From a virus, in UHGV virus genome UHGV-0160578: 10,059 nucleotides of DNA; one strand, 5' to 3'. Position numbers and translations under genes: made by a program. Positions 48 through 7,540 of the stretch are shown here, one piece after another (positions within the stretch are counted from its first letter, which is position 1; each line of letters begins with the position of its first letter). Under the pieces are notes generated by a model that ran no database searches, was not told the origin of the DNA, and saw nothing but the letters and a program-made list of their open reading frames with translations.

Positions 48-743
48 TCAGGCCTGCGTCAGGTCGAGGCGCTGCTCAGTGGCGCTCAGTTTTTCCTGCA
101 CATGTTCAGCAACAGCGGTCACCGCTTCATGCACATCATTCAGACGGGCGTCATCGCTGGCCTGTTTGCGGCCAAAAATGGATTTCACCTTTTCGGTCAG
201 GGCGGTGAACACGGTTTCAGGCAGGTCTTCAAATTCCAGCTCAACAGGCGTTGCCACTGAAATCAGGTTTTCAGGGCTTAATTTGAAGCGGTTCAGGGGG
301 TTGTGTTTTGCCGTGCGGCAGAATTCCAGGTATTCCGTGCCGAGGCTTGCCGGGTCATCGGTGACGGCCAGACCCACCAGATAACATTTGCCGGTGTTGG
401 CAAAGTTCGGCTGAATTTCCATTGAGGTATAGACCTTCTGCGCGGCCTTGTTCATCGCGATAAGGTCATCGGTCGGGGTGATTTTCGCAAACAGCGCCCA
501 TTTGCCTTTCAGCGCCGAATCATCGTCAATCTTTTCGGCCTTCAGTTCGGCCACATCGCCATAACGTTTAAAAATACCGTCAGGCAGGATGCCGCGCAGA
601 TGCTCCAGGTTAATGCGGCAACCATAGACACGCGGGTCAAAGGTTTCGGCCATTTCCTGAATATCCTGCGCACTGATGACACGCCCGTCACAGGTGTCAC
701 CCTCAACGCCGATACGAAAGAATTTTGAGACTTTTTTTGCCAT
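48..743 (-). CDS. O: Capsid scaffolding protein (P2 gpO family)
   Basis: ORF 48..809 (-). N-terminus from the ATG at 743 (MAKKVSKFFRIGVEGDTCDGR...) matches my recollection of P2 gpO. AGGA lies about 10 nt upstream; the upstream in-frame ATG at 809 has GGAGG directly abutting it, so is an unlikely start. Position is divergent from P as in P2. 231 aa is shorter than the 284 aa I recall for P2 gpO. Confidence 0.82.
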   Translation of the reverse strand: MAKKVSKFFRIGVEGDTCDGRVISAQDIQEMAETFDPRVYGCRINLEHLRGILPDGIFKRYGDVAELKAEKIDDDSALKGKWALFAKITPTDDLIAMNKAAQKVYTSMEIQPNFANTGKCYLVGLAVTDDPASLGTEYLEFCRTAKHNPLNRFKLSPENLISVATPVELEFEDLPETVFTALTEKVKSIFGRKQASDDARLNDVHEAVTAVAEHVQEKLSATEQRLDLTQA

Positions 744-916
744 TGTCAGGAGTCCTGAATAGTGATTAGAGGAGTCACATGTCGGCATCAGTTTCCCGAC
801 GATACGCATCCTCCGCCATCAGTCCCGGATGGCTTATCACTGACACAACAGCACCTTAGCGAATCGCGGGGCGCGACTCAGTAGCCTTGCCGTGTATTCA
901 TCACGGCGAGGTATTC
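744..916. promoter_or_regulatory. Divergent late promoter region between O (leftward) and P (rightward), presumably Ogr/Delta-activated
   Basis: 173-bp intergenic between divergently oriented late genes. Contains dyads GTCGG-N10-CCGAC (781-800), GTGA-N9-TCAC (762-778), CGTG-N7-CACG (891-905) and palindrome TCAGGAgTCCTGA (746-758). No exact TGT-N12-ACA dyad found by eye. Confidence 0.4.
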
Positions 917-2689
917 ATGACCATCACCACAGACACCACTCTTTTACACGACCCGCGTCGTCAGGCGGCGCTGCTGTACTGGCAGGGGTTTTCCGTGCCG
1001 CAGATTGCCGCCATGTTGCAGATGAAACGCCCGACAGTGCAGAGCTGGAAACAGCGCGACGGCAGGGAAAGCGTTGCCCCCATCAGCCGTGTCGAAATGA
1101 GTCTGGAAGCGCGGCTGACCCAGCTCATCATCAAACCGCAGAAAACCGGCGGTGACTTCAAGGAAATTGACCTGCTGGGACGCCAGATTGAACGACTGGC
1201 ACGGGTAAACCGTTACAGCCAGACCGGCAACGAGGCAGACCTTAATCCGAACGTCGCTAACCGCAACAAAGGCGGGCGTCGCAAACCGAAAAAGAATTTT
1301 TTCAGTGACGAGGCCATCGAAAAGCTGGAGCAGATTTTCTTTGAGCAGTCTTTCGAATATCAGTTGCACTGGTATCGCGCCGGGCTTGAGCACCGCATCC
1401 GCGATATCCTGAAATCCCGCCAGATTGGTGCAACGTTTTATTTTTCCCGCGAGGCGCTGCTGCGCGCCCTGAAAACCGGTCATAACCAGATTTTTCTGTC
1501 GGCCAGTAAAACGCAGGCGTATGTGTTCCGCGAATACATCATCGCCTTTGCCCGGCTGGTTGACGTTGACCTGACCGGTGACCCGATTGTCCTGGGCAAT
1601 AACGGCGCAAAACTGATTTTTCTCGGCACCAACTCCAACACCGCACAGAGCCATAACGGTGACCTGTACGTCGACGAGATTTTCTGGATCCCGAATTTTC
1701 AGGTACTGCGTAAGGTGGCATCAGGTATGGCCTCACAGAGTCACCTGCGCTCGACCTATTTCTCCACCCCGTCCACGCTGGCGCACGACGCCTACGCGTT
1801 CTGGTCGGGTGAACTGTTCAACCGGGGACGCGCCAGCGCCGCCGAACGCGTGGAAATCGACGTCAGTCATAACGCCCTTGCCGGAGGTCTTCTCTGTGCG
1901 GACGGCCAGTGGCGGCAGATTGTCACCATTGAGGATGCCCTGAAAGGCGGCTGCACGCTGTTCGACATTGAGCAGCTCAAACGTGAAAACAGCGCCGACG
2001 ATTTTAAAAACCTGTTCATGTGTGAATTTGTTGACGACAAGGCGTCGGTGTTCCCGTTCGAGGAGCTGCAACGCTGCATGGTCGACACGCTGGAAGAATG
2101 GGAAGACTATGCGCCGTTTGCCGCAAATCCGTTCGGCTCCCGCCCGGTATGGATTGGTTACGACCCGTCACACCGTGGCGACAGCGCCGGATGCGTGGTA
2201 CTGGCACCGCCGGTGGTGGCCGGTGGCAAATTCAGAATACTTGAGCGTCACCAGTGGAAAGGCATGGACTTTGCCACCCAGGCTGAATCCATCCGCAAAC
2301 TCACCGAAAAATACAACGTCGAATACATCGGTATTGATGCCACCGGCCTCGGTGTCGGCGTGTTCCAGCTCGTGCGCTCGTTCTATCCCGCCGCGCGTGA
2401 TATCCGCTACACGCCGGAAATGAAAACCGCAATGGTGCTCAAGGCAAAAGACGTTATCCGCCGTGGCTGTCTGGAATATGACGTCAGCGCCACCGACATC
2501 ACCAGCTCGTTTATGGCTATCCGCAAGACCATGACCAGCAGCGGACGCAGCGCCACCTATGAGGCCAGCCGCAGCGAGGAAGCCAGCCACGCCGACCTCG
2601 CCTGGGCGACCATGCACGCCCTGTTAAATGAGCCACTCACCGCCGGTATCAGCACCCCGCTGACATCCACCATTCTGGAGTTTTACTGA
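917..2689 (+). CDS. P: Terminase large subunit / ATPase (P2 gpP family)
   Basis: ORF 887..2689. ATG at 917 preceded by GGCGAGG (904-910) gives 590 aa, the size of P2 gpP. N-terminus MTITTDTTLLHDPRRQAALLYWQGFSVPQIAAM as recalled for gpP. Stop overlaps Q start (TGATG). Confidence 0.9.
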   Translation: MTITTDTTLLHDPRRQAALLYWQGFSVPQIAAMLQMKRPTVQSWKQRDGRESVAPISRVEMSLEARLTQLIIKPQKTGGDFKEIDLLGRQIERLARVNRYSQTGNEADLNPNVANRNKGGRRKPKKNFFSDEAIEKLEQIFFEQSFEYQLHWYRAGLEHRIRDILKSRQIGATFYFSREALLRALKTGHNQIFLSASKTQAYVFREYIIAFARLVDVDLTGDPIVLGNNGAKLIFLGTNSNTAQSHNGDLYVDEIFWIPNFQVLRKVASGMASQSHLRSTYFSTPSTLAHDAYAFWSGELFNRGRASAAERVEIDVSHNALAGGLLCADGQWRQIVTIEDALKGGCTLFDIEQLKRENSADDFKNLFMCEFVDDKASVFPFEELQRCMVDTLEEWEDYAPFAANPFGSRPVWIGYDPSHRGDSAGCVVLAPPVVAGGKFRILERHQWKGMDFATQAESIRKLTEKYNVEYIGIDATGLGVGVFQLVRSFYPAARDIRYTPEMKTAMVLKAKDVIRRGCLEYDVSATDITSSFMAIRKTMTSSGRSATYEASRSEEASHADLAWATMHALLNEPLTAGISTPLTSTILEFY

Positions 2690-3723
2690 TGAGTAAGAAA
2701 AAAGGGAAAACACCGCAGCCAGCGGTGAAAACAATGACCGCCAGCGCCCCGAAAATGGAGGCATTCACCTTTGGTGAGCCGGTGCCGGTACTCGACCGCC
2801 GTGACATTCTGGATTACGTCGAGTGCATCAGTAACGGCAGATGGTATGAGCCACCGGTCAGCTTTACCGGTCTGGCGAAAAGCCTGCGTGCTGCCGTGCA
2901 TCACAGCTCACCGATTTACGTCAAACGTAATATTCTGGCTTCAACGTTTATCCCGCACCCGTGGCTTTCCCAGCAGGATTTCAGCCGTTTTGTGCTGGAT
3001 TTTCTGGTGTTCGGTAATGCGTTTCTGGAAAAGCGCTACAGCACCACCGGTAAGGTCATCAGACTGGAAACCTCACCGGCAAAATATACCCGCCGTGGTG
3101 TGGAAGAGGATGTTTACTGGTGGGTGCCGTCCTTTAACGAGCCGACACCTTTCGCGCCCGGCTCCGTGTTTCACCTGCTGGAGCCGGATATTAATCAGGA
3201 GCTGTACGGTCTGCCGGAATATCTCAGCGCCCTTAATTCTGCCTGGCTGAATGAGTCGGCCACGCTGTTCCGCCGCAAGTATTACGAAAATGGCGCACAT
3301 GCCGGATACATCATGTACGTCACCGATGCCGTGCAGGATCGCAACGATATCGAAATGCTTCGCGAAAACATGGTGAAGTCGAAAGGCCGCAACAACTTTA
3401 AAAACCTGTTTCTCTATGCCCCACAAGGGAAAGCCGACGGCATTAAAATTATCCCGCTCAGTGAAGTGGCAACGAAGGATGATTTTTTTAATATCAAAAA
3501 AGCCAGTGCCGCAGACCTGCTGGACGCGCACCGCATCCCCTTTCAGTTGATGGGCGGCAAGCCGGAGAACGTCGGGTCGCTGGGTGATATTGAGAAAGTG
3601 GCAAAGGTCTTTGTCCGCAATGAGCTTATCCCGTTACAGGACAGGATCCGCGAGATAAACGGCTGGCTCGGTCAGGAGGTCATCCGCTTTAAAAACTACT
3701 CACTGGACACTGACAACGGCTGA
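2689..3723 (+). CDS. Q: Portal protein (P2 gpQ family)
   Basis: 344-aa ORF, same length as P2 gpQ. Start ATG overlaps the P stop (TGATG at 2687-2691). Followed by a strong terminator and the cos site, as in P2. Confidence 0.9.
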   Translation: MSKKKGKTPQPAVKTMTASAPKMEAFTFGEPVPVLDRRDILDYVECISNGRWYEPPVSFTGLAKSLRAAVHHSSPIYVKRNILASTFIPHPWLSQQDFSRFVLDFLVFGNAFLEKRYSTTGKVIRLETSPAKYTRRGVEEDVYWWVPSFNEPTPFAPGSVFHLLEPDINQELYGLPEYLSALNSAWLNESATLFRRKYYENGAHAGYIMYVTDAVQDRNDIEMLRENMVKSKGRNNFKNLFLYAPQGKADGIKIIPLSEVATKDDFFNIKKASAADLLDAHRIPFQLMGGKPENVGSLGDIEKVAKVFVRNELIPLQDRIREINGWLGQEVIRFKNYSLDTDNG

Positions 3724-3892: not shown

Positions 3893-3911
3893 GTGCTTTC
3901 CCCGCCTCGCC
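3893..3911. other. cos: cos site (19-nt cohesive end core; reverse complement GGCGAGGCGGGGAAAGCAC)
   Basis: Plus strand GTGCTTTCCCCGCCTCGCC; its reverse complement matches the P2 cohesive-end sequence as I recall it. Location immediately downstream of Q/terminator is as expected. Confidence 0.6.
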
Positions 3912-4039: not shown

Positions 4040-4459
4040 CTAATCATCTTCTAAAGGTGGAATTTTGATGCCACTAATTAGCAGTACTTTCCGGTATGCC
4101 TCAAAAATAATGTTGTGTGTTTTTTGTAAATCATCGAGCATTTTTTGCCGTCCTGCTGGGGTATCTTTGGCGAAATTATGAGCGCGAAAAAAATCATGTG
4201 CCAAGTAGTTTCGAGCTGATAGAGCCAGTTCTACATGTTGTAGCGTTTCATCATCTGCCACCCCTTTTTTACGCAATAAATTGCTTAGTCTGCCTAATGT
4301 TAACTTATCAAATTTTAAGAATTTTTCTTTTAATGTTGGAATGTCTTCGCCTTGCTTCATTTCATGTTCGATAAGGACATTAATCAGTTCAACTTCCAAC
4401 AATTGTGCAGCTTCTGAGGTGTAACCGAACTTCCAAAAGACTTCATCAAGCGTTGCCAT
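4040..4459 (-). CDS. Hypothetical 139-aa protein, AT-rich; possible HEPN-like (R-x4-H motif) accessory/defense candidate
   Basis: ORF 4040..4468 (-); first ATG at 4459 (MATLDEVFWKFG...). Sits in an approximately 36% GC island (about 4030-4500) inside an otherwise roughly 55% GC phage. Predicted helical; motif S81-A-R83-N-Y-L-A-H88-D-F. Function not recognised. Confidence 0.6.
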   Translation of the reverse strand: MATLDEVFWKFGYTSEAAQLLEVELINVLIEHEMKQGEDIPTLKEKFLKFDKLTLGRLSNLLRKKGVADDETLQHVELALSARNYLAHDFFRAHNFAKDTPAGRQKMLDDLQKTHNIIFEAYRKVLLISGIKIPPLEDD

Positions 4460-4596: not shown

Positions 4597-4803
4597 CTAT
4601 CGTCTGCGTGGTGGTGGCGTAACTCTTGATTGACCGATATGGTTAAACCGCCCGTAATTATCCCGGACTATTTCGGCACACACGACCAGCTCATCGGGCG
4701 TCAGATTTTCGTTGACCATAATCCGCTGTAAACGCTGAACAATAGCCATCAGCTTGATATTTTTAGTTTTATGGTGCGGTATCTCGCCTGGTATTCTGTG
4801 CAT
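4597..4803 (-). CDS. Hypothetical small protein (68 aa)
   Basis: ORF 4597..4815 (-). ATG at 4803 overlaps the stop of the upstream ASCH gene (TAATG), suggesting translational coupling. No recognisable domain; only ORF in this interval. Confidence 0.4.
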   Translation of the reverse strand: MHRIPGEIPHHKTKNIKLMAIVQRLQRIMVNENLTPDELVVCAEIVRDNYGRFNHIGQSRVTPPPRRR

Positions 4804-5255
4804 TATCCAAGCCACCCGTTTTGCTGTGCACGCTCCATCTGTTCATCTGAATAGTTCCATGCTCCATCCGTGGCAACCATTGCCCCGCCAGACATCCCCG
4901 TCTCTGGTTCATACATAACAGCAAGGCCGAGCTGATGCATAATTTCATGATTAATTCTGAATACCAGACCACGCTCACTAAGTTCTTTCCAGTTCACAAT
5001 CTCATATGCGCCTGTATTAAGCCGCTCAATACTTAGCAAGACATAATCTTCCAGCCAGTCTGACAGGTCAGTAACATCTGTTATCCGGGCTTCAACCTTT
5101 CGCCCCGTATACACACCCTGCACCCATTCATGCAAAATCAACGTGTCCCCGCGCTCATAATTACGGTCATTTTTCCGAAACTCTGCACGTTTATGTCCTT
5201 CCAGCACAAGGTCGAAATATTTTGCGTGCAGCTTTACCTCGTGAATTTTTGCCAT
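4803..5255 (-). CDS. ASCH / DUF3850-like domain protein (150 aa)
   Basis: ORF 4803..5291 (-). ATG at 5255 overlaps the A stop codon (TAATG); GGAGTGG RBS about 8 nt upstream. N-terminal signature HEVKL..KYFDLVLEGHKRAEFRKNDRNYERGDTLILHEW resembles DUF3850/ASCH (PUA-like fold). Lower GC (roughly 47%) than core genes. Confidence 0.72.
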   Translation of the reverse strand: MAKIHEVKLHAKYFDLVLEGHKRAEFRKNDRNYERGDTLILHEWVQGVYTGRKVEARITDVTDLSDWLEDYVLLSIERLNTGAYEIVNWKELSERGLVFRINHEIMHQLGLAVMYEPETGMSGGAMVATDGAWNYSDEQMERAQQNGWLG

Positions 5256-7540
5256 TATGTCCACTCCATTACTGTTGAGAATCCCGGCCACTCATCAGCG
5301 ACCGGATACGTGAATTTTTTCCCGTCGTAATTTACGGTTGCCCCACGCGCCAGCGCCTCAAGCTCCCATCGCTGAGGCCTGATACCGTTCTGAGCAAGGT
5401 CAACACGGATACGGGTAATTTGCATTCTTTCCGACCGGGTCAGTCTGGCCGATGGTGCAATTTCATGCGGTTTTAACGGGCTTCCGTTTCTTTGCTGACG
5501 ATTTGGTGTTCTCATGTCGTGTTTTAATGCGCCCCTGAGCGCCCTCACGACCTCCTGGTCATTCCATTCGATAACACCGTCATCAACCAGATTAAGCACT
5601 GCTGCGGCGTGTTCAGAAGGTGTGGGAGCCGGTAACGAAGCATCACCGCCGGTGAACTTTCCACAGTTATTGACAGGACTCCGAGGCGCGGCGATGCCGC
5701 TTTTTAAAGTCAAAGGCTCAACGACCGGAACTTTCGGCACAATGCGCCAGTCCGTCGTTCTGGTGATATGAATATGACGCGCGCCGAGATGCGGCGCGTA
5801 AATGCCGACCACTCTCTCGACTTCTTCCTCGTACTCGTTAACGTCATCCGACGGGCTACGGGCGACCCTGACAGTCTGACAATCGCGCGGGACATTTGCC
5901 CCACCCTGCGCGCTGATATACAACGCAAAATCACCACTGTCTGCGGCGGCGCGTGCAGCCTCGACGCGTTCGTCAAACTCATCAGCAATGCTGACGCCGC
6001 GAGGCAATTTGCGTAGTTCACGGTAAGCCCCCATTGTCGGCAGGCCAACCGTTTTAAATTGCGGAATGCGCCACGTTGACGCCCATGCGGTAACAGCCGC
6101 GGCAGTATCTTTCAGCGGCCTGCCAGTATCGTTATCGAGCTGACCATCCAGTGCATAGCCGTCGATGTTTTTTGAGATGTATTTCGCGATATATCCCGCA
6201 GCACCGCCCCGGTTAAGGTGTTTTGCCTGAAAACGGTTTCGCGCAGCGCCTCTTTCGTCACCATCCTCTTTGAGCGCATAGCGACGCATGATTTCGATAA
6301 TCTGGTTACGCTGGCGTGGATTACAAAAAAGCATCATATGCCAGTGCGGCGTTCCGTCGTGGTGTGGCTCGACGACACGCAAACCGTAGACCTGTAAATC
6401 ATTATCCTTGAATGCCGTGCGCATCAGGCTCCAGATACGGCAGAGATAACGCTGCGCATCCTTTGGATTAAATGCCTCATCGTTCCAGCCGTGATTAAGC
6501 TGAACGGTTTTACTTTCGCCTTTTCCGACCTGACGTGTCGGGTGATACTTTGACGGCGCGGTCAGCGTGATAAACATCCCCACATCACCCTCTGCGGCGG
6601 CGTAACGCTCAATACCGGCAATGGTGTTCATCAGCTCCATCCGGCGAATTTCAGGATTAGAAATACTGCCCATCACCTTACTGATAAGGTCGATGCGCTC
6701 GCCGGTTTCCCTGTTTTCAAGGTCACACGATTTAAGAAATTCCAGATTTGCCTGGCGGCGCGCACGCACATCACGAATGGCATGTTTACTGGCATAAGGA
6801 GAACGGTCTTTATTGACCTCCCCGACAGCAATCAGTAACGCCTCATGCCAGCGCATACGCTGGCCTTTAAGCTGATGAGTCCACCACTCATCGTTAAACA
6901 GACGGGCAATGGCAGAATATGCCTGCCTCGTGGTTATCTGTCCTTTACGGTATTTTTTCCAGTAGAGCGGGGAAATATTGAAAGCACGTGCAGCGCCAGC
7001 AACATGACCATACAGATGATCCTGCGCCTCATCCGTAAACAGCGATTCTTTTTCGCCATGCGCATCCACCCAGGCATCGCAGAGTTCCTCATACATCATG
7101 AAAAGCTGCGATGAGATACGGGCGGCAAACTTTTTCAGCTCCTTGTCATTCATCCCCGGCAGACGCGCATAATGGTCACGCTCTGCCAAAAACAGCAACG
7201 ACGCGTCGGTGTTCATTTCATGGCGCTGATTCACACGCTCAATGCGCGGCCATAAACGACGCTGAAAAGTGGATGTGAGGAAATAAAACCCGTGCACCGG
7301 GCTTTTATTGCGCCGGATGTAGTCATAGCGTGAAGTAAACAGCGAGCGCAAAAAGTAAGGCAGGCGGTTAATCGTGGATAAAACACCTTGCACCTGACGC
7401 ATCTCATCACGTGTAAGGGGTCTTTCGCGCCCGACAGCCTCGCGTGGCGCGTTCCATGCATAAGCACCGGCAAACGTCTTACCGGTGCCTGCGGCAAATG
7501 CTGACGGAGGGACAAAACGCCCGGAGGCTTTAACGGCCAT
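5255..7540 (-). CDS. A: Replication initiation protein, rolling-circle HUH endonuclease (P2 gpA family)
   Basis: ATG at 7540 gives 761 aa, the size of P2 gpA. N-terminus MAVKASGRFVPPSAF as recalled. HUH motif (PHWHMMLF) and paired tyrosines (GYIAKYISK) typical of rolling-circle initiators. The track's longer ORF uses a TTG at 7582. Confidence 0.9.
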   Translation of the reverse strand: MAVKASGRFVPPSAFAAGTGKTFAGAYAWNAPREAVGRERPLTRDEMRQVQGVLSTINRLPYFLRSLFTSRYDYIRRNKSPVHGFYFLTSTFQRRLWPRIERVNQRHEMNTDASLLFLAERDHYARLPGMNDKELKKFAARISSQLFMMYEELCDAWVDAHGEKESLFTDEAQDHLYGHVAGAARAFNISPLYWKKYRKGQITTRQAYSAIARLFNDEWWTHQLKGQRMRWHEALLIAVGEVNKDRSPYASKHAIRDVRARRQANLEFLKSCDLENRETGERIDLISKVMGSISNPEIRRMELMNTIAGIERYAAAEGDVGMFITLTAPSKYHPTRQVGKGESKTVQLNHGWNDEAFNPKDAQRYLCRIWSLMRTAFKDNDLQVYGLRVVEPHHDGTPHWHMMLFCNPRQRNQIIEIMRRYALKEDGDERGAARNRFQAKHLNRGGAAGYIAKYISKNIDGYALDGQLDNDTGRPLKDTAAAVTAWASTWRIPQFKTVGLPTMGAYRELRKLPRGVSIADEFDERVEAARAAADSGDFALYISAQGGANVPRDCQTVRVARSPSDDVNEYEEEVERVVGIYAPHLGARHIHITRTTDWRIVPKVPVVEPLTLKSGIAAPRSPVNNCGKFTGGDASLPAPTPSEHAAAVLNLVDDGVIEWNDQEVVRALRGALKHDMRTPNRQQRNGSPLKPHEIAPSARLTRSERMQITRIRVDLAQNGIRPQRWELEALARGATVNYDGKKFTYPVADEWPGFSTVMEWT
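5670..5689 (-). other. ori: Putative origin nick site (ori) for the A protein, internal to gene A
   Basis: Minus-strand sequence GCGCCTCGGAGTCCTGTCAA matches my recollection of the P2 ori nick-site region, which lies within the 3' part of gene A. From memory only, not verified. Confidence 0.45.

Follow-up and report, generated by a model that had tools for sequence, protein, structure and literature searches.

orf91 in a P2-like phage segment: an accessory ASCH–DUF7415 gene next to replication gene A

Introduction

Among the genes of P2-family phages, orf91 is already catalogued, and versions of it are annotated in P2, in WPhi (gp91) and in L-413C. Proteins 90–97% identical to the one described here form clusters with hundreds of members, annotated as 'DUF3850 domain-containing protein' (97% identity for those so labelled) or as 'ASCH domain protein'. 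A literature search on orf91 found no reported function; matches to 'orf91' were tables giving the function as 'unknown', uses as a qPCR target, and unrelated genes. Rousset et al. 2022 list 'DUF3850/ASCH' in their supplement among the components of gpA–gpQ hotspot arrangements; in the 'old-tin' arrangement it is protein 3. A preprint (bioRxiv 10.1101/2025.08.28.672839) that uses P2 orf91 as a qPCR target calls it 'an essential protein' in the methods, in passing and with no data.

A protein with a domain of the same general kind is Escherichia coli YqfB, in which the catalytic triad is Lys21/Thr24/Glu74, plus Arg26. For the second domain discussed below, DUF7415, a literature search found no paper that mentions it. 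This report describes an orf91-type gene in a stretch of 10,059 nucleotides from the virus genome UHGV-0160578 (the window), its distribution and domain structure, and the readings that can be given of its role. By megablast and annotation the gene is a homologue of P2 orf91, WPhi gp91 and L-413C orf91, and it is the intact, full-length form of this P2-family accessory gene.

Organization of the locus

The window is a segment of a P2-like (Peduovirus) genome, with its orientation reversed relative to the P2 map. Its features are as follows.

48–809, minus strand: gpO
887–2689, plus strand: terminase P
2689–3723, plus strand: portal Q
3893–3911, minus strand: P2 cohesive-end sequence GGCGAGGCGGGGAAAGCAC, 19 nt, identical to P2 cosR
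4040–4459, minus strand: cargo ORF of 139 aa (142 aa from an upstream GTG), matching phrog_12893
4597–4803, minus strand: ORF of 68 aa (phrog_11386), its ATG overlapping the orf91 stop (TAATG)
4803–5255, minus strand: orf91-type coding sequence, ASCH/DUF3850 plus DUF7415, 150 aa and stop (Pfam; homology to L-413C and P2 orf91)
4818–5006, minus strand: DUF7415 domain, aa 84–146 (Pfam, exhaustive HMMER, conservation, AF2)
4872–5000, minus strand: Pfam core of DUF7415, aa 86–128
4935–4949, minus strand: H103-E-I-M-H107 (HEIMH), aa 103–107 (translation and family alignment)
5028–5246, minus strand: DUF3850, a minimal ASCH (PUA-like) domain, aa 4–76 (Pfam, PDB 3IUW, AF2 model)
5253–5267, minus strand: junction of gene A and orf91, from GGAG to the orf91 ATG (sequence)
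5255–7540, minus strand: replication gene A (P2 gpA homologue), start placed by analogy with P2

Beyond gene A lie orf83/82/81/80, B and cox, and then the C repressor on the opposite strand. Because GGCGAGGCGGGGAAAGCAC is the P2 cosR sequence, the window includes the cos junction that separates portal Q from the hotspot.

The stop codon of gene A (TAA, 5257–5255) and the start codon of orf91 (ATG, 5255–5253) have one base in common on the minus strand, where the junction reads ATGGAGTGGACATAATGGCA; a GGAG at 5267–5264 is separated from the ATG by a spacer of 8 nt. The overlap is as the initial annotation described it, and such a stop/start arrangement supports the proposal made there that translation of orf91 is coupled to that of A. 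Close relatives have ATGATGG at the junction, with TGA as the A stop, and the overlap is also present in them; in an Enterobacter relative A and orf91 are 5 nt apart. At 5255–5259 on the minus strand the window has ACATAATGG as against ACATGATGG in P2, WPhi and L-413C. The A stop is TAA in the window versus TGA in these three phages, and the window is without the first of the two tandem ATGs of orf91, so that its product begins MAK rather than MMAK. A lower GC content of orf91 relative to A had also been pointed out; the difference is real and modest, about 0.43–0.48 in the orf91 ORF versus about 0.50–0.59 in A. The cargo downstream of orf91 is at 0.35–0.40.

The 68-aa gene repeats the TAATG arrangement at the orf91 stop. 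In the ORF list it starts at a GTG and encodes 72 aa; the ATG start agrees with the PHROG profile. The gene occurs in 361 of 5426 E. coli genomes, co-occurring with orf91, and an Enterobacter locus (L017) has a 54%-identical homologue (E 6e-24) in the same coupled position after orf91. In one protein (P0045), the N-terminal 50 residues of the 68-aa protein are fused to a ClpX-type zinc finger and an orf91-type DUF7415 (E 1e-7 for the 68-aa protein against P0045; E 1.6e-6 with a two-sequence profile); its gene is preceded by one for a large Toprim protein and followed by a Gp49/HigB-like gene. Gene order and conservation alike mark the 68-aa gene as a conserved partner of orf91, translationally coupled to it as judged from the overlapping codons.

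The 139-aa ORF sits in an island of 35–40% GC between the 68-aa gene and cos. It has no match in Pfam, NCBIfam or PADLOC and matches only phrog_12893, a family of unknown function. This ORF is the variable hotspot cargo proper of the window, and it is a candidate for a single-gene defence or exclusion factor.

Distribution of orf91

The 3' end of gene A was found by megablast in 1681 of 5426 complete E. coli genomes. Among these, the ASCH half of orf91 is present in 378 and the DUF7415 half in 351, so that orf91 DNA accompanies the P2-type A in about 22% of these genomes, a figure from which very divergent copies could be missing since the survey was by megablast. Three sampled prophages with A and no orf91 match carry unrelated cargo straight after A: one has SIR2 together with an ATPase, another an ImmA/IrrE set, and the third a ComEC-like protein among hypothetical genes. 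The gene is accessory and not part of the P2 core. A universally conserved core gene was the alternative that the initial annotation had named as fatal to its own reading, and the counts of 378 and 351 against 1681 go the other way. The 'essential' label of the preprint fits badly as well, since orf91 is missing from about 78% of the A-carrying E. coli genomes surveyed.

Among close relatives of orf91, dN/dS is 0.4–0.7, calculated on very few substitutions. Four E. coli proteins (P0017, P0018, P0029 and P0035) have the N-terminus of Cox or B joined directly to the C-terminal part of orf91; these chimeras resemble the products of extensive deletions within the early operon of P2-like prophages in decay.

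The N-terminal ASCH domain

The N-terminal half of the protein was annotated from the outset as ASCH/DUF3850, and sequence and structure comparisons agree. Pfam places DUF3850 (PF12961) at aa 4–76 (E 1.2e-17, 64.3 bits against a cut-off of 22.9) and ASCH (PF04266) at aa 8–86 (E 9.5e-11, 42.8 bits against 21.2), the ORF matches phrog_986, and phmmer matches the protein to PDB 3IUW (E 7.6e-13). In a Foldseek search, the AF2 model (mean pLDDT 87.5) superimposes on 3IUW with a TM-score of 0.89 and an rmsd of 1.4 Å over 80 residues, followed by YqfB, PH0355 and YTH domains. The binding cleft of ASCH domains is marked by an octapeptide, GxKxxExR, and the translation of orf91 contains it as G20-H-K22-R-A-E25-F-R27. 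The domain is a minimal ASCH/PUA-like module with the canonical motif and, in the predicted model, the PUA-like beta-barrel fold.

A YqfB-type amidohydrolase was considered and rejected on the catalytic triad: Lys and Arg are kept, and the position of the Thr nucleophile is occupied by Glu25. With Glu at this position, orf91 is a canonical ASCH protein rather than a YqfB-type amidohydrolase. No sequence-level match between YqfB and orf91 was found by phmmer.

The C-terminal DUF7415 domain

The C-terminal 50 residues had been described as a tail, probably too short for a peptidase domain, that carries an HExxH motif. This part of the protein does not behave as a mere tail. Pfam recognizes DUF7415 (PF24187) at aa 86–128 (E 1.9e-14, 54 bits against a cut-off of 27), a match that the initial annotation had overlooked. 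Structure prediction, which had been proposed as a check, gives the domain alone an alpha-alpha-beta-beta-alpha arrangement with high confidence (AF2, pLDDT 93.5, pTM 0.78) and no likeness to metallopeptidases. In this prediction the C-terminal region is an autonomous folded domain and not a loose extension, and DUF7415 is a compact, acidic, phage-specific module.

An exhaustive HMMER search with aa 78–150 as the query yielded 196 clusters at 50% identity, of which 147 representatives were aligned. The family motif is (D/N)W(N/K)xxSxxGLxxRINxE(I/V)(L/M)HPLGLAxxRxPxTGxSxGALVxxDGxWxY. The near-invariant residues G96, L97, I101, N102, E104, H107, G110, L111, A112, G120, S122 and D130 are all present in orf91, and only P108 is replaced, by Gln; E104 is found in 122, H107 in 142 and P108 in 136 of the 147 representatives. 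The conserved surface set comprises W89, S93, R100, N102, E104, H107, S122, D130, W133 and Y135.

The HEIMH sequence is present at aa 103–107 as first reported; as a zincin site it does not survive the alignment. Position 103 is variable (R in 57, K in 25, T in 18 and H in 14 of the 147 representatives), and HExxH stands in register in 10. Comparison of the DUF7415 fold with solved structures returned no match to a metallopeptidase or to any other protein, and the predicted fold is not that of zincins, which have a beta-sheet subdomain before the active-site helix and a third ligand on a later helix or loop. A zincin peptidase site is ruled out by this combination of family conservation and fold. 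By the alignment, H103 is a lineage-specific residue at a variable position that happens to stand beside two conserved ones, E104 and H107, and HExxH in orf91 is a chance feature, a quirk of the lineage, as had been suspected. A non-zincin metal or ligand site may be formed by E104, H107, S122 and D130.

DUF7415 in other phages and prophages

DUF7415 was found in 799 of 50,697 phage records, almost all from phages of Gammaproteobacteria; the carriers include T5-like phages (often with two copies), T4-like phages (RB43, Jiaodavirus, Slopekvirus, Karamvirus), P2-like phages and others. Among 146 representatives, the domain is standalone (60–90 aa) in 42, extended at the N-terminus in 36, extended at the C-terminus in 54 and extended on both sides in 14, and the extensions make up about 80 unrelated groups. 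Recognizable partners are the PF04447 dATP/dGTP pyrophosphohydrolase (three times), thymidylate kinase, an Rv2179c-like 3'-5' exonuclease, DUF3850 (twice), PGDYG, DUF551 and a ClpX-type zinc finger. In Jiaodavirus the DUF7415 gene lies between nrdD and nrdG, in phage Miller it is in an early cluster near a NUDIX gene, and in a T5-like phage it is just upstream of the primase.

In the P2 family, the heads attached to DUF7415 vary. ASCH–DUF7415 fusions of 52–55% identity occupy the same slot in Enterobacter prophages, and in a metagenomic contig (L010) ASCH and DUF7415 are separate, adjacent genes. Klebsiella P2-like prophages (L023–L025, 6001–6531) have, 3 nt after gpA, a 176-aa protein in which DUF7415 is fused to another head; this head belongs to phrog_24212 and carries the NCBI name 'MazG-like', an identity that searches of Pfam, NCBIfam and PDB did not confirm. 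In Enterobacter sp. MGH 24 (L030, 4707–5180) a single 157-aa ORF, which overlaps the start of A on its upstream side, combines P2 orf83 (DUF5405, E 3e-31) with DUF7415 (E 4e-19). Separate DUF7415 genes lie upstream or downstream of A at eight further loci (L026, L028, L031, L035, L038, L041, L045 and L046). These arrangements point to DUF7415 as a mobile module shuffled among unrelated partners.

In a scan of species-representative genomes, with the query alignment trimmed to the DUF7415 domain, 19 of 21 DUF7415 loci lay no more than 5 kb from a P2-type gpA, portal or terminase. Nine Pseudomonas-type loci (L027, L029, L032, L033, L036, L037, L039, L042 and L044) have a standalone DUF7415 of 62–70 aa, about 3.3 kb from the terminase. 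At the one locus of this group that was annotated (L029, 4989–5201), the gene stands in the position of a late-operon moron, with head-completion gene L on one side and tail gene X on the other. This L–X position weakens the case for a tie of DUF7415 to replication genes in particular. What the loci support is a looser association with the lytic operons of the P2 family at large, in which the place next to A is the commonest, and the domain is better described as an accessory of the lytic cycle that frequently neighbours A.

Proposed role of orf91

The best explanation as a whole is that orf91 and the 68-aa gene form a dispensable, lytic-phase accessory pair that acts on nucleotides or nucleic acids; its probability is put at somewhat under one half (about 0.45). 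The product of orf91 would be made from the early (Pe) operon during lytic development, translationally coupled to the replication initiator A. Its ASCH head would bind, and possibly process, an RNA, a nucleoside or a modified-base ligand, and DUF7415 would serve as a portable element for binding or regulation, joined by phages to enzymes that act on nucleotides and nucleic acids. Since its partners include enzymes of the nucleotide pool and of nucleic acids, what DUF7415 binds is most likely a shared ligand or else a partner that is conserved. The pair may act around the time of replication, either in support of replication or by blunting a nucleotide-based host response, and orf91 would not be a defence gene expressed from the prophage.

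The last point bears on the reading of orf91, with or without the 68-aa gene, as anti-phage defence cargo of the gpA–gpQ hotspot, in which the ASCH domain would sense modified phage nucleic acid. The gene does lie inside the P2 defence hotspot interval, 'DUF3850/ASCH' appears in the arrangement tables of Rousset et al., presence among E. coli genomes is patchy, and in type IV restriction enzymes modification is sensed by domains of the PUA superfamily. Against this, orf91 shares the orientation of A and is translationally coupled to it within the early operon of the lytic cycle, with no notable promoter or terminator between them, and the variable cargo starts downstream of orf91 and the 68-aa gene. 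The protein has no effector domain (nuclease, NADase or pore); PADLOC gave it no significant match (only PDC-M11B, E-value 0.033 over 20 residues) and none for the two downstream ORFs, and no NCBIfam defence-system match was found. Both domains are moreover common in strictly lytic T4-, T5- and T7-like phages. Four points favour a lytic accessory over a defence gene: orf91 is coupled to A, it has no effector domain, PADLOC gives no match, and both domains abound in phages that are strictly lytic. The defence reading is distinctly improbable, and a defence or counter-defence role for orf91 is conjecture. Nucleoside salvage by a YqfB-type N4-acylcytidine amidohydrolase, with DUF7415 as an oligomerization tag only, is very unlikely. 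E. coli YqfB structures come next after 3IUW in Foldseek (E about 3e-3, TM 0.5), and K22 and R27 of the octapeptide align with YqfB K21 and R26, but Thr24 is replaced by Glu25, and the orf91 domain falls about 25 residues short of YqfB, with which it is about 10% identical and has no phmmer match; the invariant residues of DUF7415 are polar (N, E, H, S, D), unlike a simple oligomerization interface. Still further down the scale comes a miniature HExxH (zincin/gluzincin-like) metallopeptidase that would make orf91 an ASCH-targeted protease. HEIMH does fall on a predicted helix, H103 is kept throughout the orf91-like subfamily, including the 52–55%-identical Enterobacter homologues and P0045, and acidic residues (E116, E118, D130) follow it; this reading was nonetheless largely refuted already by the alignment and fold, and its chance of being right is very slight.

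The preferred reading of a lytic accessory leaves room for different views of what DUF7415 contributes. The domain could be a protein–protein adaptor that tethers variable heads (ASCH, MazG-like, exonuclease, kinase, orf83) to a common host or replisome component, as would suit its extremely promiscuous fusion partners on either side, the P2-family slots that flank A, the positions elsewhere beside a primase or Toprim gene, and an acidic domain whose predicted helix exposes a conserved face of R100, E104 and H107 (from helix periodicity in the model). This is unlikely overall, if the weightiest of the alternatives: the standalone forms of 60–90 aa, called the largest single class, speak against it, although they could still be competitive binders; the Pseudomonas late-operon position does not fit; and T4-, T5- and P2-like phages have no replisome proteins of their own in common. 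A bolder proposal, which we consider improbable, is that DUF7415 is an unrecognized fold whose polar set (N102, E104, H107, S122, D130) together with W/Y residues binds either a conserved factor of the host or a ligand derived from a nucleotide; the domain would then be the constant element of the A-flanking slots, with the heads (ASCH, MazG-like, orf83) swapped, and with the 68-aa partner it would constitute a new lytic-phase counter-defence or nucleotide-surveillance module.

The main value of the analysis is one of tidying up, in that a tempting but false 'hidden protease' reading is removed. New, at a modest level, are the cut of P2 orf91 at a domain boundary, the recurrence of DUF7415 around A with swapped partners, and the conserved 68-aa partner. 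DUF7415 itself is a modest lead, being a confidently predicted, phage-only fold with no structural relative that is present in about 800 sequenced phages, and orf91 with the 68-aa gene is a well-defined, easily deleted target at the conserved edge of the P2 defence hotspot.

Comparison with known systems

The window protein has its full counterpart in Yersinia phage L-413C, whose orf91 product consists of the same two domains in 150 aa and is 90% identical. P2 orf91 (NP_046796) occupies the same slot directly after A, its start overlaps the A stop, and its ASCH domain is about 96% identical over aa 1–75. The reference P2 protein differs in its length of 109 aa and in having no DUF7415: at the DNA level identity runs up to codon 75, where the ASCH domain ends, and then gives way to complete divergence, the remaining 34 codons (gene at L004 4317–4646) being unrelated read-through sequence beside tin. 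From this alignment, the reference P2 gene evidently derives by truncation from the two-domain gene, with the break between the domains and at the start of the tin–old cassette, and a viable laboratory phage thus does without DUF7415. In WPhi the region is annotated as two ORFs, orf91 (93 aa) and orf92 (64 aa; L001 3662–4177). They correspond to one orf91-type gene split by several single-base indels relative to the window, and gp92 matches the DUF7415 profile; the split is due either to sequencing errors or to the gene being a pseudogene.

Outside the P2 family, the closest structure is PDB 3IUW, an 'activating signal cointegrator' (DUF3850) of Enterococcus faecalis from structural genomics, with 39% identity to the N-terminal domain of orf91. 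It is a single-domain protein of 83 aa with no DUF7415 and no known function, whereas orf91 has two domains. The PUA-like beta-barrel and the GxKxxExR motif are common to orf91 and to E. coli YqfB, PH0355, ZmASCH, YTH and the ASCH domain of TRIP4. The orf91 domain is shorter than the YqfB-type ASCH/PUA-like proteins and bears only a distant likeness to them (TM about 0.5); in the motif alignment, the YqfB nucleophile Thr24 corresponds to Glu25. Prophage ParB-CTPase-DUF3850 fusions (PNAS 2025, PMC12704722) have the DUF3850 module in common with orf91, but there the partner is a CTP-binding ParB fold, the gene lies beside parA, and again no function is given for DUF3850. On the C-terminal side, the Pfam DUF7415 proteins of T4-like, T5-like and P2-like phages (phrog_3954, phrog_2502 and phrog_33705) have the same domain of about 55 aa and the same motif; orf91 differs from them in its fusion to ASCH, in the His at variable position 103, and in the Gln that stands in place of the near-invariant Pro108.
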